Shown here: piece after piece, positions 7,885 through 59,892 of the stretch | Numbering within the stretch: position 1 is the stretch's first letter | Layout: every line of letters begins with the position of its first letter | Assembly: GCA_036785375.1 (NCBI GenBank) | Contig: JAWMAR010000049.1 | Location: 5,270,001-5,334,000, forward strand | DNA length: 64,000 nucleotides | Reading direction: 5' to 3' | Origin: Leucoraja ocellata | Lineage: Eukaryota | Program-made: the position numbers and the translations under genes | The notes under the pieces: model-generated | Seen by the model: the letters and a program-made list of their open reading frames with translations, nothing else | Databases searched by the model: none | What the model was told of the DNA's origin: nothing

Positions 7885-9376
7885 GATGTGTCTGTACTCT
7901 TCAGAATTCGTTATGTTACTACCTCTTCAGAATTCATTATGTTACTACCATCAGCAGTAGTATCATCAATGAAGATAAGTCAGGGGCTGTCCCACTGCGG
8001 CGACTGAATCCACGAGTTCTGACGAGTTTGCCCTCGACTCCTACTCGCAGCATGGTTGACATGAGGTCCTAGGAGGTCTTTGTACCTCTCCTTCATGCTC
8101 GAGAGTAGTCCCCGCGTACTCGAGACCTCAGCTAGATCGCGGCGTATTTTTCAACATGTTGAAAAATGTCCACGAGTAAAAAAAGGTCACCATGGAAAAA
8201 ATAGATTATTTTTTTAATCGTAGGTTTAGTCGAAGTAGGTCGGCATGTTATTCGTAGGTAATCGAGGGTAGTCTAAGGTAGTCGTAGATATAGTCGAAGC
8301 GAGGTCATCTTCACTCTCCACTATTTGGTGTCCATTTTCCTGAAGCTAGTCTTCAACATAGTCAAAGGAGGTCTTCAACATGACATTTTTTCAAACTCTT
8401 CTAAACTCGCCAATTAGGTCACTGCAGTGGGACAGACTCTTACCTTCAGCAGCCATACATGCCCAGGCTAAACACCCCCACCACCGTGTTTCACAGATGA
8501 GGTGGTATGCTTTGGATCTTGGGCAGTTCCTTCTCTCCTCCACACTTTGCTCTTGCCATCACTCTGATACAAGTTAATCTTCGTCTCATCCGTCCACAAG
8601 ACCTTTTTCCAGAACTATGGTTGCTCTTTTAAGTTCTTCTTGGCAAACTGTAACCTGGCTATCCTATTTTTGTGGCATTGCATCTTGCAGTGTAGCCTTT
8701 GTATTTCTGTTCATGTAGTCTTCTGCGGACAGTGGTCATTGACAAATCCACACCTGACTCCTGAGGAGTTTTTCTGATCTGTCGGACAGGTGTTTGGGGA
8801 TTTTTCTTTATTATAGAGAGAATTCTGTCATCAGCTGCAGAGGTCTTCCTTGGCCTGCCAGTCCCTTTGCGATTAGTAAGCTCACCAGTGCTCTCTTTAT
8901 TAATGATGTTCCAAACAGTTGATTTGGAGCCGCAGGTTTGGCTGATGTCTCTAACTGTTTTATTCTTGTTTCTCAGTCTCATAATGGATTCTTTGACTTT
9001 CATTGGCACAACTTTGGTCCTCATGTTGATAACCAACAATAAAAGTTTCCAAAGGTGATGGAATGACTGGAGGAATGACTAGGTGCTGAGAGCTCTCTTA
9101 TACCTGCATTAAGGAGGCAATTAAACACACCTGAACAATTTCAGACAGCTGATAATGTGTCCCAAACATTATGGTGCCCTGAAATGGGGGGGGGGGGGCT
9201 ATGTATAAACACAGCTGTAATTTCTACATGGTGAAACCAACATGTGTAAAAGTAGCCTTTAATAAAACATGAAATGTGCACTCTAACTATTTTTCTATTA
9301 CAAATCTCAAATTGTGCAGTACAGAGGCAAATAAATAAATGATTGGTCTTTATCCCAAACATTATGGAGGGCATTG
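7885..9376 (-). mobile_element. Tc1/mariner DNA transposon remnant (IR/DR type), interrupted by a MITE
   Basis: Transposase N-terminal HTH region (..ISQT..SKSTVWNII..GRPRKTS..TVRRRLHEQ), VLWTDETKINL, KHGGG and LIFIDD..MNSE fragments; terminus reads TA-CAATGCCCTCCATAATGTTTGGG on minus, with inner repeat TCCCAAACATTATGG at ~9160 and ~9353. Confidence 0.85.
7983..8439. mobile_element. PIF/Harbinger-like MITE
   Basis: ~50-bp imperfect TIRs (GGGGCTGTCCCACTGCGGCGAC.. / ..GTCACTGCAGTGGGACAGACTC); central palindrome TTTTTCAACATGTTGAAAAA; splits the Tc1 transposase. Confidence 0.7.
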
Positions 9377-12020: not shown

Positions 12021-12244
12021 GGATATACATTGCTCTGTTTAAGAAGGAATGTTTCAGTTGTGTAATGAAATCTGTTCTTGGTTTTCAGAACAGATGTAAT
12101 TTAATTCAAATTATTCATCAATTTTTGTTTTTCTTTCAGATGTGCGTGCTATATTTCTGGTGCCTTGGAATTGATGTAAAGAAAATTAAAGTGGACTATT
12201 TTGGAAATCTGGATCAACGTCAATTATAGTTGCGATACTTCAAA

Positions 12245-13098
12245 ATGATAGGCAAATTAAAACACAACTTGCTTTTAGCATGTTTAGTGATTAGTTCACT
12301 CACAGTGTTTTATCTTGGCCGGTATGCATTAGAATGCCACCATAAAATAGATCACAACGGGAAACTTCTACAGGTATTAAGTAATGGAAGATCACTAAAT
12401 TATGTTTCGGGAACTGGATTAAAAAATAATTCAAACAGATTTGTTTACAACAAAGACATGCCATTAATATTTATTGGAGGCGTTCCACGAAGTGGCACCA
12501 CACTCATGAGGGCTATGCTCGATGCTCATCCTGATGTTCGCTGTGGCGAAGAGACCAGAGTTATTCCTAGAATTCTAGCGATGAAGCATATGTGGAGCAA
12601 ATCCGGCCGGGAAAAGCAGCGACTGGATGAAGCTGGTGTTACGGATGAGGTGCTGGATTCAGCCATGCAAGCCTTTTTACTAGAAATTATTGTTAAACAT
12701 GGGGAACCCGCTAAATACTTGTGCAATAAAGATCCGTTTGCCCTTAAATCGTTGACTTACTTAAGTAAAATATTTCCCAATGCAAAATTTATTCTAATGA
12801 TAAGAGATGGCCGTGCTTCAGTTCATTCTATGATTACTCGGAAAGTTACCATAGCAGGATTTGATCTCAGCAGTTACAGAGACTGCTTGACCAAATGGAA
12901 CCGTGCCATTGAGACCATGTATAACCAGTGTTTAGAAACTGGGTTTAATAAGTGTTTGCCAGTGCATTATGAACAACTTGTTTTGCATCCAACTACATGG
13001 ATGAAAAATGTTCTGAAGTTCCTAGACATACCTTGGAATACAGCAGTTTTACATCATGAAGAAATGATAGGAAAAGTTGGTGGTGTTTCACTTTCTAA
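12245..13098 (+). CDS. TPST1: Tyrosylprotein sulfotransferase 1, coding part of exon 2 (exon 12140-13098)
   Basis: [25 protein letters not shown] (type II anchor, TPST1-type N-terminus), 5'-[25 protein letters not shown], 3'-[11 protein letters not shown]; acceptor TTTCTTTCAG|A at 12140, phase-2 donor AA|GTAAGT. Confidence 0.97.
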
Positions 13099-14226
13099 GT
13101 AAGTATAAATTTACTTTAAATGTTTAAATACTTATAAAAGTGATTTGTATAAAGTATTATTTTAGTATTGTTTCATTAATGGTAAATAAAGTATACATGA
13201 CTTTGAGCCCCCATGTAGTTATTGTGGTTAGGACAAATAATAATAATAATAATATATTTTTTATTGTCATTGCACATAAGTGCAACTGAGCAGAACTTCT
13301 GTAATCCTGAGCAGAAATACTGAGCAGAATGTCTGTAATCCTATTGCAAGTTGTATGTATTTTAGTTTTGCAGGATATCTATACACATTTACTTTTATGA
13401 TGCAAAATCATTATTCATTCATTATCGTTGAAAACATTAGCGACGCAGTGGCGCTGGTTTCCAACGGGAACGGTGATGGACACACCACACATCTCTGTCC
13501 TCCTGTTACTGCAGACTTCCGCCGCTGGAAGTATAGGATTTTGGTGTGTGTGCTTTATCATCATTCCTTACAATGCTATGGATGACAGTGATCACAACTT
13601 CTACTGAAGTGTGAGTGGCCGTTGGCTCGCTAGAAGCTCAACCACCCTTTGACAGGTCTTGTTTTTGGTCCTGCTGGGGGTCCACAGCCCCCTCCTCACC
13701 TGGCAAACCAGGTGGGGGAGACGGTTTAGTCGCTGACTATCCCACCATGGAGCAGGTAGCACGGGATTACATGGTGCCTGTGGCAGGGGTCTCTTCCCCC
13801 CCCCCCCCCCCCCCCCCAACCTGATCTGAACGCAAAATGCTGTTACTTATTCATATGACTAAACGTATTCATTCATACTATGACAATTTGGATGTTCCCC
13901 TTATTTACATAGTCATATTTTGGGCACTAGAGCTCTTGATTTGGTTAAGTTTGTTCTGTGTATTATTCTCTGCATTCCATCTTTAAGCTTGGATCTCAAC
14001 AATTGAAATTTATAGCGTTAATAATCTGACCATGGAATTATGGTCTAACAACCTATAAAACGTTAACACCTTGGGATAGTCCAAACCCAGCATTATTCTG
14101 CTTAACTTTTAAGTAACTTTGTGAAGTCAATCTTCTCAAATGTGTTTTAACTTCCGCCCTTAAGTGACACATGATGAATTATTTATGGATGTTGAATGAA
14201 TCATGAGTATGGGTAGAACCCCATGC

Positions 14227-15112: not shown

Positions 15113-17426
15113 GATAGATATAGATATAGATATGCCATTTATTGTCACTATACATGTACAGTGAAACTGAAAGCTGCTCGTACTCAGTGCATACATACAA
15201 TTTTACACAAAAAACAAGAAACAGAAAAACAAAACAGAAGGGAGATGGGGGGGGGGGGGGAATAGGTGCACAAATTCTACGGCGCTACATACATATATAC
15301 ATATATACAGATGGAAGTCCGTGTTGGGCGGTGTAGTCAGTGCATGTGTGGATTTGAATTTATGGTAGATATAATTCTCGGGAAGCAGCTATTCCTGAGT
15401 CTGTTTGTCCTGGATTTGATGCACCTATAGCGCCTTCCAGAGGGCAGCAGGTCGAACAGTCCAAACGCAGGATGGGAGCTGTCTTTGGTGATCTTCTTTG
15501 CCCTGCTAAGGCAGCGGGAGGTGTAGATGTCCATCAGGGAGGGGAGAGGGCAACCAATGATCCTCTGCGCTGTCCTGGTTACCCTCTGAAGCCTCTCCCT
15601 GTCTGCCATGGTGCAGCTGCCATACCATGCTGTAATGCAGTATGTCAGCAGGCTCTCGATGGACGAGCGATAGAAGGTCAGCAGCAGGTTAGAGTCCAGG
15701 TTGTGCTTCCTGAGGACCCTCAGGAAGTGCAGCCGCTGCTGAGCCTTCTTGATGACCGCTGTCGTGTTGTCCGTCCAGGAGATGTCAGCCGCGATATGGA
15801 CGCCGAGAAACCGGAAGGTGTTGACCCTCTCCACACACTCGCCGTTAATGTGTAGGGGGATTAAGTCGGTGCTGTGCCTCCTGAAGTCGACAATGAGCTC
15901 TTTTGTTTTCCTGGTGTTCAGAGCCAGATTGTTTTCTGAGCACCAGGTTGTCAACTTCAGGACTTCCTCTCTGTAGGCTGTCTCGTCTCCCTTTGAAATA
16001 AGTCCGACCACAGTAGTGTCGTCAGCAAATTTGACGATGCGGTTGTTGTTGTGGGCCGGACTACAGTCGTAGGTGTAGAGACAGTATAAGAGGGGGCTTA
16101 GCACACAGCCCTGTGGGGAACCGGTACTCAACCTGCGAGTGGAGGAGAGGTGGGGGCCAAGTCTCACAGTCTGGGGCCGGTTTGTGAGGAAATCCTTAAT
16201 CCAGGCACATGTGACAGTGGGGAGGCCGAGAGTGACCAGTTTACCAATGAGGATGTCCGGGATGATTGTGTTAAAGGCTGAACTAAAATCCACAAAGAGC
16301 ATCCGGACGTAGCTCTGCCCCTGCTCCAGATGGCTCAGCACAGAGTGGAGAGCTACGGTGATGGCGTCTTCTGTGGATCTGTTTTGGCGATAAGCGAATT
16401 GGTGGGGGTCGAAGTCTGGTGGTAGATAGTCCTTGATGTGCTGGAGGACCAATCTCTCGAAGCACTTCGTGATTACCGGAGTGAGGGCAACAGGACGGTA
16501 GTCATTAAGGCTGGTGATGGGAGACTTCTTCGGCACAGGGACGATTGTGGCTGATTTTAGGCAGGACGGAATAACTGCCTGGGCCAGGGAGAGATTGAAA
16601 ATTCTGGTGAAGATGGCAGTGAGCTGGTGGGCGCACGCTTTGAGCACCTTACCAGGGACTCCATCTGGGCCGGTAGCCTTCTTGGGGTTCACTGCCAGGA
16701 GCACCCGTCTGACATCGTGTTCCCCGACAGTGAGTGGGGTAGTACAGGAGCCAGGTGAGGGTGGGAACAGGGCTGTAGCAGGTGAGTGCTGCTGTTGTGA
16801 TGTTTCAAAGCGGGAGAAGAAGCAATTTAGCTTTTCTGCCAGCGGCGCACTCAGGTCTTCTGACTTTGTGGCACAGCCTCTGTAGTTGGTAATGTCTTGT
16901 ATGCCCCGCCATACCTCCCGTGTATTATTGCTGGACAAGTGGGACTCTATGCTCCTCTTGTGATCCGCCTTGGCCTTTTTAATACCACTTTTCAGGTCGG
17001 CTCGAGCAGCCCTGTACAGAGCTCTGTCACCTGACCTGAAGGCAGCATCGCGGGCTCTGAGGAGTGTGCGGACCTGACTGGACATCCAGGGTTTCTGGTT
17101 TGGGAAAACCCGTATGTTTTTGTCTACAGTCACATTTCCGATGCAGAACTTGATATAGTCCAGCACCGATTCTGTGAGAGATTCCAGGTCCTGGTGTTCG
17201 AATATGTCCCAGTTTGTCTGGGTAAAGCAGTCCTGTAGATTGGAGAGTGCATTTTCAGGCCAGGTTGTAACAGATTTTATGGTGGGCCTGGCACTGCGTC
17301 TGAGGGGGGTGTAGGCTGGAGAGAGCAGGAGGGAGAGATGGTCTGACTGGCCGAGTTGGGGGAGGGGGATGGCTCTATACGCGTGCTTGATATTGGTGTA
17401 AACATGATCCAGCGTGTTCACCCCTC
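15113..17426 (-). mobile_element. Rex1/Babar-clade LINE, 5'-truncated and young
   Basis: Intact RT frame, 3' UTR ending ..GACAATAAATGGCAT plus (ATCT/ATATCT)n tail at ~15113-15133; TATA duplicated at 15109-15112 and 17427-17430. Confidence 0.9.
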
Positions 17427-17448
17427 TATAAGTTAATCTTCGTCTCAT
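15337..17448 (-). CDS. Rex1-type reverse transcriptase ORF (C-terminal APE remnant + RT), 703 codons without stops
   Basis: TLDHVY..LGQSDH (end of APE), PNQKPWM, YRPVALT..KCFERLV, QFAYR.NRSTEDAI, FVDFSSAFNTI, GSPQGCVLSPLLY, KFADD, FRFLGVHI..W. Confidence 0.9.
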   Translation of the reverse strand: MRRRLTYRGVNTLDHVYTNIKHAYRAIPLPQLGQSDHLSLLLSPAYTPLRRSARPTIKSVTTWPENALSNLQDCFTQTNWDIFEHQDLESLTESVLDYIKFCIGNVTVDKNIRVFPNQKPWMSSQVRTLLRARDAAFRSGDRALYRAARADLKSGIKKAKADHKRSIESHLSSNNTREVWRGIQDITNYRGCATKSEDLSAPLAEKLNCFFSRFETSQQQHSPATALFPPSPGSCTTPLTVGEHDVRRVLLAVNPKKATGPDGVPGKVLKACAHQLTAIFTRIFNLSLAQAVIPSCLKSATIVPVPKKSPITSLNDYRPVALTPVITKCFERLVLQHIKDYLPPDFDPHQFAYRQNRSTEDAITVALHSVLSHLEQGQSYVRMLFVDFSSAFNTIIPDILIGKLVTLGLPTVTCAWIKDFLTNRPQTVRLGPHLSSTRRLSTGSPQGCVLSPLLYCLYTYDCSPAHNNNRIVKFADDTTVVGLISKGDETAYREEVLKLTTWCSENNLALNTRKTKELIVDFRRHSTDLIPLHINGECVERVNTFRFLGVHIAADISWTDNTTAVIKKAQQRLHFLRVLRKHNLDSNLLLTFYRSSIESLLTYCITAWYGSCTMADRERLQRVTRTAQRIIGCPLPSLMDIYTSRCLSRAKKITKDSSHPAFGLFDLLPSGRRYRCIKSRTNRLRNSCFPRIISTINSNPHMH

Positions 17449-20279
17449 CTGTCCACAAGACCTTTTTCCAGAACAGTGGTTGCTCTTTTAAGTACTTCTT
17501 GGCAAACTGTAACCTGGCCACCCTATTTTTGTGGCTAACCAGTGGTTTGCATCTTGCAGTGTAGCCTCTGTATTTCTGTTCATGAAGTCTCCTGCGGACA
17601 GTGGTCATTGAAATCCACACCCGACTCCTGAAGAGTGTTTCTGATCTGTCAGACAGGTGTTTGGAGATTTTTCTTTATTGTAGAGAGAATTCTGTGATCA
17701 TCTGCGGAGGTCTTCCTTGGCCTGCCCGTCCCTTTACGATTAGTAAGCTCACCTTTCTTCTTAATGATGTTCCAAACAGTTGATTTTGGTAAACCTAAAG
17801 TTTGGCTGATGTCTCTGTTGTATTTGTGTTTCTCATACTCATAATGGCTTATTTGACTTTCATTGGCACAACTTTGGTTCTCATGCTGATAGACTGCAAT
17901 GACAGTTTCCAAAGATGATGGAAAGACTGGAGGAAAGACTAGGTGCTGAGAGCTCTCTTATATTAAACACCTGAGCAATTAAACACATATGAGCAATTAC
18001 AAACATCTATGAAGCCATGTGTCCCCAACATTATGGTGCCTTGAAATGGAGAGACTATGTATAAACACAGCTGTAATTTCTACATGGTGAAATCAAAATG
18101 TATAAAACTGGCCTTTAATAAAATCTGACAACGTGCACTTTAACCACATATGATGTTTTCTATTACAAATCTCAAATTGTGGAGTACAGAGGCAAATCAA
18201 TAAACGGTGGGTCTTTGTCCCAAACATTATGGAGGGCACTGTACGTGCTTTATATGTGCAGGTACAAAACGTCCAGCTTTTGTGCATGCAACTGAAGCCA
18301 AAATTCCTATCAGATCCTGGTGCACACTTTGAGCAACTACAGTCAATACTGTAAGGACTTGCAGAAATGGCTGGAGTTGCTCAATGTGTGAGCCAGGATC
18401 TGACAGCAATTTTGGATTTATTTGCATGTATAAAAGCTGGAAGCTGTATCACTCTTACAGTGAAAGTTTGCTTCCTTGCTGCTGGCTTTGGCAGATGTTT
18501 TTTTTTAAAGCTTCCCAATACGATTTACAGTATAGGAGAATTGGAAGTCCGCTCAATGCGAATGCTCCTTTTGGAGCTGTACTTGTACTGCCTGTTATAT
18601 GCTTATAAATATTTTTTGACTTTATTCGGTTTGGAAGTATGTGCTACCTCAGACACCACGGGGTTCGGGAACAAAATGTCGAAGCAAAACAAGAACATGG
18701 CTAGTAATATAAAATATCTTGGCAACTGTTTCATTATTATTTTACAGGGAATAAAATAAGTTTTGCATTTGTATCAGACTTTTTTGGATTTCTTTTAGAA
18801 TGTTAATCAAGTATGTTGTGGTCAGTAAATTACTTCCAAAATGTAAACACCATTCTGATGTGGAAATAAAGCAGGTAATTTTGTCTGCTACTCATGTACA
18901 GATGTATGAGAATGATCAGGTAATATTTTGAAGATGGGGCAATATTTACGAGGAGGTAAATTAATTGTGAATTCTTTGTGACCTTTTGGAGACCAGATAT
19001 GAGATGATCATCAAGTTCATCAAGCAATTATGATGGTATGTTGGTCTTTATTCCAGGGGGATTTTCGGATGTGCGTCCTCACCAAGATCTCTTGTTCCAA
19101 TACTATGGGGTCCTGAAGTGCTTGTATCTGGAATATTGCCTACATTTGTCCCTACTCAAATGTGATGGAGATAGAACAGTGCGGATTGAACAGACTAATT
19201 CCCGTAATGGTGTTTGAAAGGGTTGGACCAGTTCAGGAAAGTGAGAGGGTATCTGATGAGCACAACCTAGTCCTATCCAGGAACCTCAGTCTCGATTTAA
19301 GACAACAATTATTCTCCTACCTTGTTACTAGGTAGTAGAATACCATTATACCAAAGTGCAGTTACTTGTTGGGAACCTACATGAGAGCATAGAGCGAATA
19401 AATCTTGCAACCCAAAAAACCTGCTCTATCATTCAGCAAGGAAATAAGTAATTGTGCCTTGCCCTTTTCCCACCTGTTCCCCATAACCTTTGACATCCCC
19501 ATAGATCAGAAATTGTATTCTTAATGATTAATGCTACGGCAATTAATAGGAATAGAATTGGCCACAACCTTTTTTCCCCATACTGTTAGGCTCACAGATA
19601 TAAAATGATTCCTACATCTAGGTTATCATCTTCGAGGAAGATGAATATTGTGTCATGAAGTTGCATATGCTGGAATTAAAATCTGACCTGAAGCCATGTG
19701 CTGTCTGTATTTGTTCTACAGTATTAATTGGAGTTTGGTAACCAGTATCAAAGCCATAGAAAAAGGCAACGTCTGCCACCAGAATTGCGAACAGGAAAAC
19801 CAGTTTGAATATGTAATGTGGATGTTTCTTTGAAGATAAAGTATGAAGACCCACAGAGCTAGGCAAAGCAAGTAATGAAATTGAAGAGAGGGAGTGTAAG
19901 AAATGAGGAGGGTGCCGAGAACCAAACAAAATGTTGGATTTCCAAGGCCGGACCAGGAGCTGATTTTGACCTATGCCAAAGCTGAAACACAGTGCTTGTA
20001 AAACAGTGTTTTGATAGTTATGCAAATTACAGGTGGAGAAGCCAAAGTCTCAACTTCAAATGAATTTCCATGCCCAACGCTGATGTCATGTCACTTGTGC
20101 TTTTCCTCCTGTTTTCTATAATCTTATTAATGTTGCTTAAACCATTCAGTGGTTACAATTTATTTTTAAAATATCCTTTTTTCATTGCAACATCAACCAC
20201 CTCTAGCCAAAACCAAATTTAGTTTGTGAAAAGAAGGAAGTAGCTTGAAGTGGAGCAGAATGCGGGCCGTGAGTGTGCA

Positions 20280-21873: not shown

Positions 21874-22072
21874 GGTTGAACGATCTACAGATCAAGTCAT
21901 CAAACCTGTCAATATTGAAGCCTTAACAAAATGGGTGGGGAAAATTCCGCATGAAGTAGTTCGCGAAATGCCAGTGATTGCCCCAATGTTAGCAAAACTT
22001 GGATATGATCCATATGCAAACCCACCAAATTATGGAAAACCAGATCCAGCAGTTATTGAAAACACTAAAAGG
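21874..22072 (+). CDS. TPST1: TPST1 coding exon 3 (199 nt)
   Basis: TTACAG|G acceptor; (K)[66 protein letters not shown]; donor AGG|GTAGGT; phase matches exon 2. Confidence 0.96.
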
Positions 22073-44819: not shown

Positions 44820-45385
44820 CCCCCCCCCTCGACTCCATCCAAGGCCCCAAGCAGTCTTTCCAGGTGAGGTAGAGGTTCACCTGCACCTCCTCCAACCTCA
44901 TCTATTGCATCCGCTATTCTAGGTGTCAACTGCTCTACATCGGTGAGACCAAGCGCAGGCTTGGCGATCGGTTCGGCCAACACCTCTGCTCAGTTCGCAT
45001 TAACCAACCTGGTCTCCCGGTGGCTCAGCACTTCAACTCCCCCTCCCATTCCGAATCTGACCTTTCTGTCCTGGGCCTCCTCCATGGCCAGAGTGAGTCC
45101 CACCGCAAATTGGAGGAGCAGCAGGTCGTATTTCGATTGGGTGGTTTACACCCCAGCAGTATGAACATTGACTTCTCCAATTTCAGGTACTCCTTGCTTT
45201 CTCCCTCCTTCCCCTCCCCTTCCCAGCTCTCCCACAGCCAACTGTCTCCGCCCCTTCCTTTCTTCTTCCCGCCCACCCACCCCCACATCGGTCTGAAGAA
45301 GGGTCTCGACCCGAAACGTCACCCATTCCTTCACTCCATAGATGCTGCCTCAGCTGCTGAGTTTCTCCAGCTTTTTGTCTACCTT
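44820..45385 (+). mobile_element. Penelope-like retroelement 3' end: GIY-YIG endonuclease plus hammerhead-containing terminal region
   Basis: Translates QGPKQSFQVR*RFTCTSSNLIYCIRYSRCQLLYIGETKRRLGDRFGQHL..VAQHFN..RKLEEQ..FRLG.LHP..MN (IY..YIG, R, E, N of GIY-YIG; one stop). Confidence 0.9.
45290..45323 (+). ncRNA. Minimal type I hammerhead ribozyme motif (PLE-associated)
   Basis: GGU-CUGAAGA-A-GGGU(CUCG)ACCC-GAAA-CG-UC/ACC: stem I GGU/ACC, stem II, conserved core, palindromic ACGU in place of stem III. Confidence 0.72.
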
Positions 45386-46254
45386 CTGGGAGACAATGTC
45401 ATCTTCCAAATATTTGACCAAACTTTCTCAAAATTCCATTTGTTCACAAAATTCCGCATTCTTCTGCCACTTTTTCCCATGGTGCTAAAATGCACAAGCC
45501 TAATAATCAATGAATGAAATAATTGTTACCATGGTGAATTTATTTTTTCATCTTCATCAACTTTATTGGAACATGCCAGGCAGCTGGCTGTTTTCTCCTT
45601 CCAATGCTTCTCTGTATTCTGATCTCATTCTGCAGCTGTGACTATACTTAATAAGCTGTAAATTGCTTTGGGACTTCCTGACCAGGTGGAATGCTCTTCA
45701 TAAACTTAAGCCATTATTGTTTTCCTTTCTCTTCTCCCTATAGAATCTCAGGGCCTTCCTATGAAGCTTGGATTTCCCAAAAGTAACCAAAGAATACAGA
45801 ACAGTGGCTGCTTTCCCTACCTCTTTTTCCAACGTTGAGATCGCAAAAGCATTTTGTTTGGCCATTTCTCTCTTATTAACATCATGCTTCTAAACGGCAC
45901 GATGAGCAAACATGGGTCATTCTTTAATGTGCATATTGACCCAACACTATCCATCCACCATTTCGAGCAACATTTCAATGCTAAATATAAAACAAATCTT
46001 GTCTGAAATTAATGTTGGATAAGATGATAGTCTAGGCTCATTTGCTGATGAAAGAGACTTAACCACTCCAATGTATTCTTGGCTGGTTTCCATAAATTTG
46101 AAATCATTCAATACTGTTGCTCATCTACTATTTTGTACTGACTTCATTTCAGTTGCCCTTGTTACCCTACATCGAACCCCAGTTATGTAACCTCTCATTT
46201 TCTTTTACATTGCCTTCTCTTCAAAACCCTCGCTGAGCTTGCGGTTCTCTACTC

Positions 46255-53610: not shown

Positions 53611-54843
53611 ACATGGAATATTACGAGACATAACAAATCTTTCTGAACTTCTAAGAAAAGAGAGGCGCTATCTTCTTCTTCATTACATCTATCGGTTGGG
53701 CCCAGGGCATATCATCTGAGATGTTAACACCCAGGAATTTGAAACTGCTAACCAAAGATACTAGTATCTTTGCTGCTAACTCTCTCCACCACCAACGAAA
53801 ATTGAAACTGGTGAAAGTTGAATGGTCACCGTGGATGGAAAGGATTTGGAGAGCCTGATGCTGAACACTCAGAATTTCCAAATAATTGGAGAGCAGGTCA
53901 TTATAGTTTTATTGTATTTGGTGAATTATGCTTCATAAATGAATGTACTGTGAAACACATTAACTGGCATTGGGGGAATCACACTGCTGACTGCCGAATT
54001 AATTTGAGGACTCTTTCAGCTTTGGGCCTCATAAGGTCTGCTGCTTAAGAGACCATGAACAGCAATTCTTCCAATCACTTAAGTTTGTCTAAAATGTTTT
54101 GAACATCCAGGAAGAGGAACGGCAACCATATCATATTTTTTGTACTTTAATACCATATGACAGGAGGCCATTTGGACCATCGAATCCATGCCAGCTCTCA
54201 GAGTAATCCCATCCCCCCCCCCCCCCCCCCCCCCCTAAGTTCACAGTGACCTGTTGTTTCACACATGCCCTTTAACATACCATCCACATCCCATCCCCAA
54301 TTCTCCTACAATCCACCTAATCCAAGGATAATTTACAGCACCCAACCCACATGTCTTTGGGATGTGAGAGAAGGAGAACATTTAACCTCCACACACACAA
54401 CACCGCAGGTCAGAATTGAAAATGGGTTGCTGGAGCTGTGATGCAGCTGCACTACCTGAAGTACCACTGAGCCACACTGTATCAACAGAGTCCTACAAAA
54501 GGTCCTGGTTGACTTCCACATTACTATTAAGAGAACCTCTGTTCCAGGACCTGTGTGCTGTGAGCAAGACTCCACTGAACTCAATCTCTTGGATTCCACA
54601 ATACATTTACTAATCACTGGAAACACCACCGAAGATTCAGGGTGCGATAACCATTGCACAGACTTCAACTACCTCTGATCCTTAATGCTACACTGTCACC
54701 AGCAATCCTGGGTATGTAGGACAAACTGGCCAACAGGAATTGATACAATGTTTGACATAATTCTCAGAACAACGACAAGTATGTACAATTTATCCTCCCA
54801 GATCCCCATCTTAATTGATTTTAAAGGTCTGTTCAGCTGCTAG

Positions 54844-55369
54844 TGTTGATTCACGTTTCTCTCTCACATCGGTTGTTTCGACAATAATCGACCAGGCACC
54901 GGGGTTGCTTTAAACGTACGTTTATTGAGCAGGAGTCCTCACACAGGTTACAACCTGGCAAAGAGTCAAGCTGCCTGCCCTTAATTGCAAGGCTCTTTAT
55001 ATGTTAATGCCACCGTTTAGCACCTCCCACATTCCCCCCGATCAAAGGACCAACACGTTGGGAGAAACAGGAAACCAAGTATGTCCATATAAGGGGATGT
55101 TAGAGGAACCACGCATAATCTCAGACCAGTACATTCCTTAGTCTTTCTGGCTGGGGGGGGTTGTGTATTCCTCAATCTTGTCAGACTGGGTCTGTGATCC
55201 TTTATTCATGATACACAGTAATTGCAAGACATTGTGATTTCCTTAATTGCAGCCGGTTCCAGCAAGTCTGGTCAGCAGCCATCTTATGTCCTTTGTTTCA
55301 GTCTACCTGGCCAACCATTTTGTCTTTCAGAACAATCTTATAACATTGATTCAGAATTTCTATTCATCA
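54844..55369 (-). repeat. ERV 3' LTR (526 bp)
   Basis: TG..CA termini; no differences from 59204-59729 found by eye. Confidence 0.95.
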
Positions 55370-55382
55370 TTCCCCCCTTTTG
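55370..55382 (-). other. ERV polypurine tract
   Basis: Minus strand AAAAAGGGGGGAA immediately before the 3' LTR. Confidence 0.85.
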
Positions 55383-55946
55383 CCATTCTTATGGCAACAC
55401 TCATAGTCCATTTAAAAGTCCCATTCGCCGAAACTCGTAACCTTTTAGTTCCCTGGCCAAGGCTTCTTGGACCGTCCAACCTTTATCCCCAATTCTCCTT
55501 CCTCACGCACTTCATCGTTTTCGCTGTCGCTGGGGAATGGTAACAGTCTCTGCTGCTCACGCTGTAAGACCATCATTCGTACAGAACTTTTAGCTTCCTC
55601 GGGGGTGGTCCCCAAACCCAATAAGGCCACCATTAATCGGGCTTGACAGGGACCGGATTTTTGTCCTGGCACTTCACCAGTCGTTCAGTTCTGCCCCATG
55701 CAGGGGATGGGGTAAACAGGGAGGTAACTGATGTCATTTGTGGATAACAAACCACTTGCCCCTTCCCGAATAGCTCGTTGTGTCCCTGGATGAATAAATT
55801 GGAGTTTTCTCGTTCCCCTCTCTTTCCTCGTTTGTTCCGTCCGTATTCAGGCTTTGTCCATTTCCAGCCAAAACCGATTAACCTGGCAGTGGTCGCCACA
55901 CATATTAATGCCACAAAGACCCTGATCTCAGTGAATTATTTCGTAT
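55383..55946 (-). pseudogene. env-like remnant preceded by a splice acceptor
   Basis: Minus TTCTTTTCTTTTTCACTCCCTTGTCTTCACAG| at 55947; hydrophobic VFVALICVATTA then RNKRGKR; position between pol and PPT; short and disrupted. Confidence 0.45.
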
Positions 55947-55998
55947 CTGTGAAGACAAGGGAGTGAAAAAGAAAAGAACGTGCAATTTCATGGCAAAA

Positions 55999-57330
55999 TT
56001 AATTTGTGCCCTGCTTTCCGTGGACTGGATCCCCCTCCCTGACCTCGACCTCCCCCCTTTGCTTGGTGTCACCAACCACTTTGCAATGGTGCAAATGCAC
56101 CCATGCCGATCGTCCTTCTACCTTTACTGCGGTGGGAGTGGTGAGGAGAACCTGGAAGGGGCCCAACCATCGAGGAGAAAGGGTGTCCTTACAAATCCAA
56201 TTCTTAATCAACACATAAGAACCCGGGGTGATCCGTCCATTAACGGGAAATTCTATGTCGCCCACATAAGCGGCCTTGACCTCCCCATGAATCTCACGCA
56301 GGGCCCTTGTAAGGGCAGGGACGTAGGGGACCATCTCCTCCGTCATGTGATGCAACGTCATTGTGGCCGGGATAATGTCTGTCCAGGGTTTGCACAGAGG
56401 TCGGCCATAGATGATCTCTGCAGGAGACAACCTTGTCTTCCCTGCTGGAAGGACTCTGATCTGGAACAAAGCAACGGGCAACATTTTAACCCAGGTGGAG
56501 CCTGATTGGTCCACCAGCTTGGCAAGCTTGGTCTTCAGGGTCTGGTTCAAACGTTCCACCATTCCTGCAGCTTGTGGGCGATAAGCACAATGCAGCCGCT
56601 GGGTTACGCCCAGCTGTCTGTACAATTCTTTATTGATAGCGGCAATGAAGTGAGGGCCGTTATCCGAACTGATGGTGTTTGGAACCCCGAAACGAGGAAC
56701 AACCTGCCGTAATAAAATAGACACCACCGTAGAGGCAGTGCAATCAGTGGTTGGAAAGGCTTCAATCCACCTAGAAAACACATCAACAATAACAAATACA
56801 TGTTTATAACACTGACACTTAGGCAAATCAATAAAATACATCTGTAAGGTTTCAAACGGAGCAGTAGGTAATGCAGTACGACCCGTCTGGCAGACAACTC
56901 CTTTACCAGGGTTGTGTGTAGCACAGGTGAGGCACCGCGCACTAGTTTGGGCTGCCAAAACCTTAAGTTGAGGATGCCACCATGCCTGTAAGAGAGCGCC
57001 TACTAGCAAGGTGGCCCCACAGTGAGTGGCTAAATGTAGGCAATCAACAACCCAGGTCGCTAACTGGTCTGTCATACAGGTCTGTCCGGCCGGCGTGAGC
57101 CACAATCCAGAGTCAGCCTTCCGACAGCCCAGCTGCTCCCATTCCATTATAACATTAGCAGAGGCGTCCCCCTGTAAGAGCTATACATCATTTATGGTTG
57201 GCATAGGTTTCTCAGATTCAGACGAGCCCATATAAAGGTTTTTCACCTGCCTCATCATACTACCCACCACTTTAAATCTACCGCGTGAAGCACACTTAGC
57301 CGCATCGTCAGCCAACCTGTTACCGAACAG
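55999..57330 (-). pseudogene. pol: ERV pol remnant: RNase H C-terminus + integrase
   Basis: GNRLADDAAK (end of RNase H), one in-frame TAG at 57181-57183, HLATH..CLTC zinc motif, LQMYFIDL / SDNGPHF / GMVERLN core, WLGPFQVLLTTPTAVKV..WVH (GPY/F-type C-terminus). Confidence 0.9.
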
Positions 57331-57885
57331 GACTGGCAACGGGGGCAGTCTGGTTCAACGGGGGTGCTCCACGGACTCCCCAAGGATAATCCTCTACCTC
57401 CTCCTCGTCATCACCTCCCAAATCTATGCCAGCCACCGACTTACGTAAGTCTTTATCTACCTTGGCCATATTTTGTCTCTCTCTCTCTCCTGACGATCCT
57501 TACTTTCTTTAGCATGCCTGCATTCCTGTTTTAATACTGTCACTGACTTCTCCTGACCCCCCTCGGTCAGGGGTATTCCTGTTTCAAGGCATTGCTCTGC
57601 CAACTGGCCGTTAAAGACCGTGCCTTTTCTTTGTTACAATGATCGATCCACAACTGAATGGCCCTTTTACATTTTTTTATTTTTTTTTTTTAATCCGTTC
57701 TCCATATTACACTTTGGGCTCTTGATAACACACTCATAACCCCCTTCAGGCCATTCATCCTTCCCCAGTTTATGAAAGAGTCCTCCCGACATACGCCTAA
57801 AGGTCTCCTCCATTTCTGGATGCAAGAAACATAGCTGATGTAATGGCCGGTCTGGGTGACAACTGGTGTCCATACCATTACCCAT
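57331..57885 (-). pseudogene. gag: ERV gag N-terminal remnant
   Basis: MGNG start (myristoylation-like), WPEGG motif, position after the leader; frameshifted and joined by deletion to the RNase H end. Confidence 0.6.
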
Positions 57886-57899
57886 TTTTAAACTTATTA

Positions 57900-58880
57900 C
57901 TATTACACACAATATTTCAGGGTTAACCACGAGTCCTTGGTTCCACCGTATCTCACTCGGTCACTTCAATTCCTGACCTTCGCGTGGAGGATTTCCTCTC
58001 TTAACAACCAGTCTAAGGCGGACTTTCTGTGAGATACGGAGGTACTTTGGTCTCGGCTAACACTCAATACTTGCTAACTCTTTCAGGGTTAACCTAGAGC
58101 CCTTGGTTCCTCCGTATCTCACTCGGCCACTTTAAAGTGGACTTTCTGTGAGATATGGGGGTACCTTGGTCTCAGTTAACGTCTCAATACTAGTTAACTT
58201 TATTACACAAATATCACAACAAAATTTCAGGGTTAACCGTGAGTCCTTGGTTCCGTCGTATCTCACTCGGCCACTTTAAAGTGGACTTTCTGTGAGATAT
58301 GGGGGTACTTTGGTCTCGGCTAACACTCAATACTTGCTAACTCTTTCAGGGTTAACCTAGAGCCCTTGGTTCCTCCGTATCTCACTCGGCCACTTTAAAG
58401 TGGACTTTCTGTGAGATATGGGGGTACCTTGGTCTCAGTTAACGTCTCAATACTAGTTAACTTTATTACACAAATATCACAACAAAATTTCAGGGTTAAC
58501 CGTGAGTCCTTGGTTCCGTCGTATCTCACTCGGCCACTTTAAAGTGGACTTTCTGTGAGATATGAGGGTACTTTGGTCTCGGCTAACACTCAATACTTGC
58601 TAACTCTTTCAGGGTTAACCTAGAGCCCTTGGTTCCTCCGTATCTCACTCGGCCACTTTAAAGTGGACTTTCTGTGAGATATGGGGGTACCTTGGTCTCA
58701 GTTAACGTCTCAATACTAGTTAACTTTATTACACAAATATCACAACAAAATTTCAGGGTTAACCGTGAGTCCTTGGTTCCGTCGTATCTCACTCGGCCAT
58801 TTTAAAGTGGACTTTCTGTGAGATATGAGGGTACTTTGGTCTCGGCTAACACTCAATACTTGTTAACTCTTTCAACTAGT
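57900..58880. repeat. Tandem array of 7 hairpin monomers in the ERV leader (119/144-bp alternation, 263-bp higher-order unit)
   Basis: TTTCAGGGTTAACC at 57915, 58081, 58225, 58344, 58488, 58607, 58751. Confidence 0.95.
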
Positions 58881-59182
58881 TAACTTCCTATACACAGTGC
58901 ACTCCTCTTATATACCGTCTACGGTCCCCCTCTACGGGGTGTTTTATCCGCTCGATCAGACTAGGATAATCCTCGAGACGGCCCTATCCCCGTGCCCACA
59001 ACCGGAATGTTCGGATGTCGTCCCACCAACTGACGCAAGTCAGCGAATTACCCTGCTACGCCGGGATACGAGGAAGGACCAAGAGGAGATTTAACTAAAT
59101 CTACTCACTTGGCTGCGCACCCTTCACATCGATCCCGTCGCCCAGTGGATTCACTCGCCGGCTCGATCAGTCGCTGGTTGAC

Positions 59183-59200
59183 ATCCCACTTCTGACACCA
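59183..59200 (-). other. Primer-binding site, tRNA-Leu(CAA)
   Basis: Minus TGGTGTCAGAAGTGGGAT, complementary to the 3' end of vertebrate tRNA-Leu (..ATCCCACTTCTGACACCA), 3 nt from the LTR. Confidence 0.85.
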
Positions 59201-59203
59201 AAA

Positions 59204-59729
59204 TGTTGATTCACGTTTCTCTCTCACATCGGTTGTTTCGACAATAATCGACCAGGCACCGGGGTTGCTTTAAACGTACGTTTATTGAGCAGGAGTCCTC
59301 ACACAGGTTACAACCTGGCAAAGAGTCAAGCTGCCTGCCCTTAATTGCAAGGCTCTTTATATGTTAATGCCACCGTTTAGCACCTCCCACATTCCCCCCG
59401 ATCAAAGGACCAACACGTTGGGAGAAACAGGAAACCAAGTATGTCCATATAAGGGGATGTTAGAGGAACCACGCATAATCTCAGACCAGTACATTCCTTA
59501 GTCTTTCTGGCTGGGGGGGGTTGTGTATTCCTCAATCTTGTCAGACTGGGTCTGTGATCCTTTATTCATGATACACAGTAATTGCAAGACATTGTGATTT
59601 CCTTAATTGCAGCCGGTTCCAGCAAGTCTGGTCAGCAGCCATCTTATGTCCTTTGTTTCAGTCTACCTGGCCAACCATTTTGTCTTTCAGAACAATCTTA
59701 TAACATTGATTCAGAATTTCTATTCATCA
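59204..59729 (-). repeat. ERV 5' LTR (526 bp) with TATA box and poly(A) signal
   Basis: Minus TATAAA at 59356-59361 and AATAAA at 59281-59286; candidate donor AA|GTGAGT at 59108 downstream. Confidence 0.95.
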
Positions 59730-59744
59730 CTAGTCTTATCCATA

Positions 59745-59892
59745 TCCTACTCCAAAGGTCTCCTCTATAGCCTACTCCAGCATCACTTCTTCCCATTCCT
59801 TCTATCCAGAGATGCTGCCTGGCCCACTGAGTTACTCCAGCATTTTGTGTCTATCTTCGGGGTAAACCCGCATCTGCAGTTCCTTCCTACTC
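59745..59892 (+). mobile_element. Short PLE-derived element
   Basis: Closely similar to 6185-6320. Confidence 0.7.

Follow-up and report, generated by a model that had tools for sequence, protein, structure and literature searches.

The window analysed here, a 64,000-nt stretch of Leucoraja ocellata contig JAWMAR010000049.1 (assembly GCA_036785375.1, forward-strand positions 5,270,001 to 5,334,000), contains a defective endogenous retrovirus (ERV) of 4,886 nt on its minus strand, at window positions 54844-59729. The provirus is framed by two long terminal repeats (LTRs) and a 4-nt target-site duplication (TSD), and carries remnants of gag, pol and env together with a tandem array in its leader:

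54840..54843, no strand: left copy of the target-site duplication, CTAG
54844..55369, minus strand: 3′ LTR, 526 nt
55370..55384, minus strand: polypurine tract (PPT), ending 2 nt before the 3′ LTR
55404..55642, minus strand: remains of the env cytoplasmic tail (residues 482-561 of the 561-aa little-skate Env), its frame broken near 55487
55639..55926, minus strand: remains of the N-terminal 96 codons of env, lacking a start codon
55940..55985, minus strand: site resembling a splice acceptor, with a pyrimidine tract and CAG, upstream of env and putative in function
55999..57180, minus strand: integrase frame with zinc-binding motif, rve core and MLVIN_C, preceded by a stop
57181..57326, minus strand: last RNase H residues and linker, ending in the stop at 57181-57183
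57326..57327, minus strand: gag/RNase H deletion joint, at which capsid, protease, reverse transcriptase (RT) and most of RNase H are gone
57327..57885, minus strand: putative 5′ part of gag, starting Met-Gly, matrix-like and then acidic and Pro-rich
57909..58874, minus strand: leader tandem array, a 263-nt unit repeated 3.3 times, with alternating 119- and 144-nt sub-units
59183..59200, minus strand: primer-binding site (PBS), complementary at 18/18 positions to the 3′ end of tRNA-Leu(CAA)
59204..59729, minus strand: 5′ LTR, identical to the 3′ LTR
59730..59733, no strand: right copy of the target-site duplication, CTAG

The two LTRs agree at 526 of 526 positions (54844-55369 against 59204-59729, an offset of 4360), and both have TG...CA ends. 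A poly(A) signal lies at 54921-54926 of the 3′ LTR and a TATA-like box at about 59356-59363 of the 5′ LTR, and 3 nt separate the 5′ LTR from the primer-binding site, for which the tRNA-Leu(CAA) reference was the 5′ part of a published probe (PMC7997516). The cis elements for mobilisation, comprising the LTR promoter, poly(A) signal, primer site, leader, polypurine tract and LTR ends, are all intact. A previous examination of the same DNA without database searches (the sequence-only reading) had reported the identical 526-bp LTRs with their offset and an intact CTAG duplication, tRNA-Leu primer site and polypurine tract, all of which we recovered.

Integrase is the only long frame of the element, and Pfam matches above cut-offs (rve and MLVIN_C) were obtained in one of ten frames scanned. 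Pol models of the little skate align only from residue 884 onward (window 57336 downward), which means that protease, RT and all but ~15 RNase H residues are absent, and the capsid region of the protein P0090, itself called as Gag_p30 at E = 7 × 10−4 and under the Pfam cut-off, has no match anywhere in the element; together these results point to a single deletion from capsid to near the end of RNase H. The sequence-only reading had recognised these losses and a junction of gag to pol near 57330. The junction exists, at ~57326, and the proposed gag–RNase H protein fusion was rejected because the joint is out of frame. The pol alignment reaches a few codons past the joint on the gag side (57327-57336), which suggests, as judged from a protein alignment, a short homology of the template-switch deletion type.

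The frame of the gag piece is broken near 57738, in the A-run at 57672-57691, and either near 57580 or in the dinucleotide run at 57476-57489. Its probable identity follows from its position and from the homologue P0099, an unnamed Logan protein that aligns along the piece with one frame change. A Pfam scan of the piece gave no gag match, a short-word search for gag with three candidates gave no result, and an ESM Atlas search gave no usable match; P0097, among three HMMER matches to the piece, was rejected as a TPR-repeat protein. In integrase, the first acidic residue of the DDE triad is missing, with Tyr at codon 56836-56838, and the first catalytic Asp is present in all four little-skate models. 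Relative to little-skate Env, residues 97-481 of 561 (385 codons) are deleted, and the remaining N-terminus and tail meet out of frame at 55642/55643. The frameshifted gag, the stop in pol and the vestigial env had likewise been described correctly. Having no capsid, RT or active integrase, the provirus is unable to encode any step of its own replication.

Among 86 longer proteins of the 8,000 scored, the best two came from Leucoraja erinacea, the little skate (97%), and Amblyraja radiata, the thorny skate (91%), and the top cluster held four little-skate models and one thorny-skate model. Models of these species belong to the same ERV family as the window copy:

XP_055501356.1, XP_055504911.1, XP_055521816.1, XP_055505961.1: Leucoraja erinacea uncharacterised RefSeq pol-family models
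XP_055521933.1, XP_055499867.1, XP_055486501.1: Leucoraja erinacea env models
XP_032884936.1, XP_032872649.1: Amblyraja radiata family models

Unlike the window copy, the skate models retain full frames for Env as well as protease, RT and RNase H. Identity to the window copy is 93-97% for the little-skate pol and env models whose frames are open (320-322 of 333 residues for three pol models, 89 of 96 for the Env N-terminus). Open frames are found in three little-skate protease-RT-RNase H-integrase models and in one capsid-bearing model. The pol models P0002 and P0091, each with protease, RT, RNase H and integrase, are identical at 1222 of 1225 residues and lie on separate large contigs, and the three 561-aa little-skate Env models agree with one another at 553-558 of 561 residues. 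Three little-skate RefSeq pol models have a short tail resembling the translation behind the acceptor-like site at 55940-55985, with the integrase C-terminus skipped; this tail may reflect either genuine splicing or an expedient by which the gene models avoid a lesion.

In an integrase tree of 33 rows, built without three short rows and with no reference epsilonretrovirus among its proteins, the window copy groups with skate sequences (100/99), next to Heptranchias; outside the chondrichthyans, teleost ERVs and unnamed records come nearest, at a fork that the tree does not resolve. The phylogeny that the sequence-only reading had called for thus ties the element to skates and places it outside the mammalian gamma-like clade, apart from the MLV-like viruses of the genus Gammaretrovirus. 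The integrase C-terminus matches MLVIN_C (E = 1 × 10−14), the family Env P0092 has TLV_coat and HR1-HR2 matches, and P0091 scores at best 458 bits against PDB RT entries, with the next, foamy-type, group at 186; where the top entries are not so labelled, we take them to be MLV/XMRV. With its set of LTRs, PBS, PPT and TSD, an MLV-type pol and a gamma-type env, the element has the features of a class I (gamma/epsilon-like) ERV. The family is therefore a fish-type class I ERV and, from the pol and env models, the host is a rajid skate, which agrees with the chondrichthyan host named earlier.

Four of 24 listed sequencing runs were compared with window positions 54000-57887, a span that takes in the left flank plus 3,044 nt of the 4,886-nt element: X1 (organism A, RNA by guess), X7 (organism A), X10 (organism B) and X23 (single-cell RNA, organism A). 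One 2,752-nt contig of X1 is collinear with the window from 55344 to 57887, differing at 22 letters and by 2 gap letters, and spans both deletion joints and the gag breaks without having the window's pol stop; X1 has zero depth on the flank. It is a sister copy with the same deletion, of the kind that the sequence-only reading had proposed to look for. The Logan protein P0098 reads through the same gag frame break as the window, and its contig, equal in length to the X1 contig, is probably the same record; P0113, its cluster mate, was rejected as unrelated. Two other Logan proteins, P0095 and P0096, both unnamed, terminate at the window's env-joint stop and are alike except at 2 of 97 residues. 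Among the 40 variant rows shown (there are 80 more), 7 have an allele that the window and X1 hold in common against the family majority. At three such shared-allele sites, the non-majority depth in X10 is ~950-1,000 units, compared to 25.5 on the single-copy flank, which corresponds to roughly tens of non-majority copies, with the caveat that summed depth is no copy number.

Differences between the window and X1 were polarised with the X7 and X10 majorities: among the 21 of 22 that were shown, 10 are specific to the window (X1 and both majorities oppose it), 4 are partly so, and 7 are X1's own. Had these 10-14 interior changes arisen in place, 4.2-5.9 differences between the LTRs would be expected, against 0 observed (Poisson p = 0.015-0.003; conditional binomial p = 0.03-0.008), the p-values being moderate and resting on contigs that drop rare variants. 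At LTR site 55191, the window letter is at odds with at least 99.7% of the family contig depth (X7, X10) and with six of six X23 reads, and since the variant is present in both window LTRs, it would have been copied from a donor LTR. Because the sister shares both deletions and the interior changes exceed what identical LTRs allow, the lesions appear to be older than the insertion, as the sequence-only reading had argued; the simplest reading is that RNA from an aged donor was reverse-transcribed, which would have reset the LTRs. Apparent X23 depth at 54130-54259 and 57640-57769, and apparent joints between 54207-54218 and 57672, were dropped as poly-T artefacts on A/T runs.

Single-copy flank contigs from X7 (depth 15.4) and X10 (depth 25.5) track the left flank up to 54844 and continue beyond it for 53 and 25 letters, respectively, neither extension being LTR-like. 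Position 54844 is the exact point where filled and empty alleles part (base 54844 is common to both), and the X7 contig stops at the point where an empty allele would have run 30 nt into a dispersed repeat. The insertion site is therefore probably empty in X7 and X10, i.e., in organisms A and B. The flank differs between window and X10 at 5 of 809 positions and between window and X7 at 15 of 838, which indicates that the window host is nearer to organism B than to organism A. The X7 flank contig has a 32-nt palindromic insertion and an 8-nt duplication at 54705-54712, without counterpart in the window and X10; this hairpin insertion is perhaps the remnant of a DNA transposon.

LTR identity sets a 95% upper age bound of ~12.9 million years (Myr) at 2.2 × 10−10 per year, the shark rate assumed in PMC4422223, or of 4.1 million generations at 7 × 10−10 per generation, the epaulette-shark rate given as measured in PMC10587355. 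We therefore rejected LTR identity alone as proof of recency, and the absolute age of the insertion may be up to several Myr. The element had been called a very recent non-autonomous ERV; non-autonomous stands, and very recent does not follow from its LTRs.

Contigs without the deletions diverge from the window sequence at 57327 (X7) and at 55643 (X7 and X10). Family depth on single contigs of X7 is 1,916-2,213, compared to 9-15 on the flank, suggesting, as a rough estimate, family copies of the order of 100 or more. About 1% of X23 was read; 102 of its reads have a T-run ahead of 54905, a position that lies 16 nt beyond the poly(A) signal, and family RNA is accordingly polyadenylated within the LTR; by this family-level observation in organism A, U5 would extend over about 54844-54904. 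At two gag sites, X23 reads without the family-majority letter make up 136 of 195 (57777) and 10 of 10 (57410), a hint at good expression of the deleted subfamily, with the caveat that internal priming at the A-run may bias these counts. The open pol and env frames in close skate relatives appear helper-like; together with the undeleted contigs of both organisms they include no complete provirus. The recently or still active helper that the sequence-only reading had deduced is consequently not established, no provirus with all genes open having been seen.

The leader array, absent from the sequence-only reading, occupies 0.95 kb between the primer site and gag, and the sub-units of its unit are mutually related; the number of units is that of the assembled sequence. 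On the sense strand, each of six full sub-units folds into a long hairpin (z −2.1 to −5.6); the seventh is degenerate and scores −1.0. Within the array, six 130-nt windows in a row score −2.3 to −3.6, compared to 3 of 31 windows elsewhere that reach −2, and five of the element's eight perfect 14-nt palindromes sit in the array. A search of Rfam over 54800-59800 gave no matches up to E = 5. As a guess, the array could act as a multiplied signal for dimerisation, packaging or export.

We consider it very likely that the provirus belongs to a multi-copy defective subfamily of a class I ERV of rajid skates and was mobilised in trans, as had been proposed; the sister copies and the open pol and env frames in close skate relatives both argue for it. 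An ancestor of the subfamily would have lost the gag-pol and env segments, and its descendants would have kept every cis element and accumulated neutral lesions at donor loci. Donor RNA would then have been packaged, reverse-transcribed and integrated by Gag-Pol of intact family members, with reverse transcription resetting both LTRs to identity and integrase producing the 4-nt duplication; the route may have been either intracellular or by reinfection. Several points weigh against mobilisation in trans, in addition to the moderate p-values. The empty site is inferred, the letters after 54844 lying outside the 20 of 267 loose ends shown, and no sister locus with a duplication and an LTR pair of its own was seen among the run contigs, which end inside the LTR. 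Among the models and contigs examined, no single provirus has gag, pol and env all open. Three little-skate pol models run into a spliced tail and another is truncated, none of them covering an open integrase C-terminus, and both the sister contig and the helper-like models possibly come from other species than the window.

An older insertion, with LTR identity due to assembly polishing or LTR-LTR gene conversion and with point lesions acquired in place, seems distinctly improbable. LTR identity was indeed read from the assembly and not from source reads, the ~0.4-0.6% of window-specific interior changes resemble post-insertion decay, and slow shark clocks permit old identical LTRs, but polishing toward the family would have removed the 55191 variant, both deletions are common to the sister and hence predate the insertion regardless, and the probable empty sites in organisms A and B are hard to square with an insertion that is old and fixed. 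Another route to identical LTRs enclosing an older interior common to sisters would be that a full-length provirus inserted itself and afterwards exchanged its interior, through ectopic gene conversion or recombination, for that of an older deleted copy; the family's approximately 100 or more copies would offer plentiful donors. This would take two steps and a 3.8-kb conversion tract across two large indels, and the equally non-majority LTR letter at 55191 fits one aged donor for LTR and interior alike, making such a replacement highly improbable in our view.

There is an even slimmer chance that the X1 contig represents the same locus, orthologous or segmentally duplicated, and that the deletions occurred once, after insertion. 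The X1 contig has no flank and so could fit, yet X7, a DNA run with the same organism label, appears empty at the site, the flank is at single-copy depth, 10-14 window-side changes since the split would have left differences between the LTRs, and P0096 is an additional variant. Processing of a transcript by host LINE machinery, as for HERV-W, is next to impossible: LINE-type RT frames are abundant in the window (family names assigned by reading translations), but the copy has two complete LTRs, lacks a poly(A) tail and is flanked by a 4-nt duplication. Such features are marks of retroviral reverse transcription and integrase, and the anatomy already excludes a LINE-processed copy.

Defective subfamilies with fixed deletions that spread by complementation in trans include mouse ETn/MusD, IAP I-delta-1, VL30 and deleted HERV-H, and the preferred reading of mobilisation in trans would add the skate element to this class. 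The skate leader bears a hairpin tandem array, unlike these systems and unlike recKoRV. Like the skate subfamily, recKoRV (PMC6112702) has fixed deletions common to the subfamily and spreads in trans; it contains foreign sequence, whereas the skate interior derives from the helper family itself, less two deletions. Bovine ERVK[2-1-LTR] D-type elements, which account for most new insertions in cattle (PMC10924933), are like the skate copy shortened, without functional genes, and moved by competent relatives; they are class II elements of a mammal with measured de novo mobilisation, whereas the skate element is class I, with a mobilisation that is inferred and undated.

Chondrichthyan retroviruses had been called sparsely described, which holds only in part: a preprint on anamniote env (bioRxiv 10.1101/2021.11.23.469661) reports env-bearing ERVs in six cartilaginous fishes, three with >500 copies, and the skate family may be among its lineages, one of which is named ERV-GA.a-Ara. 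Both these anamniote ERVs with gamma-type Env and the elephant-shark CmiERVs are, like the skate family, class I and of a fish-type lineage, and the latter are dated to >50 Myr (PMC4422223). In the part of PMC10435555 consulted, complementation in trans is one of three ERV amplification routes, and of 13 cartilaginous fishes screened, none of their orders appears among the hosts of invading ERVs (ERVi), in a pan-vertebrate survey that used a contig-level little-skate assembly. Held against the definition of ERVi in that work, the window copy has identical LTRs and lacks intact genes; as to insertion polymorphism, two of two DNA-type runs have a probable empty site, in organisms that may or may not be of the window's species. 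As expected of a non-autonomous ERV, it combines intact cis elements, the lack of capsid, RT and active integrase, and lesions that appear older than the insertion and are common to other copies.

As a way for ERVs to spread, complementation in trans is textbook knowledge and familiar from mammals, and the value of the locus lies in its host: the element is a defective ERV of a known kind, and the skate case is apparently undescribed so far. In a literature search with most subscription papers outside its reach, we found no description of defective ERV subfamilies or polymorphic ERV insertions in skates. Two joints and one flank supply markers that bear on whether a retrovirus is mobile in the slowest-mutating vertebrates and on whether the helper-parasite dynamic of cattle and mice holds in cartilaginous fishes. 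The locus also urges caution, as identical LTRs in sharks and skates are alone no sign of recent insertion. It is possible, though we think unlikely, that the family is still mobilising today, and that its hairpin-amplified defective subfamily outcompetes the helper in expression and packaging and has travelled with it between skate species; the family would then be the first still-mobilising retrovirus in cartilaginous fishes. Hints in this direction are the non-majority X23 reads, the two pol models 3 of 1,225 residues apart, the absence of cartilaginous orders from the ERVi survey with its contig-level little-skate assembly, and a difference of 0.86% between the window and the organism A sister, compared to 1.8% for the host flanks (Fisher p = 0.034).

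Elsewhere in the window, a sulfotransferase gene, presumably TPST-like, has plus-strand exons at 12230-13102, about 21878-22050 and about 34920 (Sulfotransfer_3, E = 9 × 10−59), and the provirus lies antisense to it, ~20 kb downstream of the last coding exon found. An open LINE-type RT frame of 716 codons occupies 15337-17487 on the minus strand and is perhaps a young non-LTR element. Two copies of a sequence with a Tc1-like transposase fragment, recognised by reading the translation, are 88-92% alike (8559-9102 and 17418-17962). A GIY-YIG fragment at 44873-45517 (E = 6 × 10−4, under the Pfam cut-off) is one that we take to be Penelope-like, and a similar motif seemingly occurs in the left flank near 54715.

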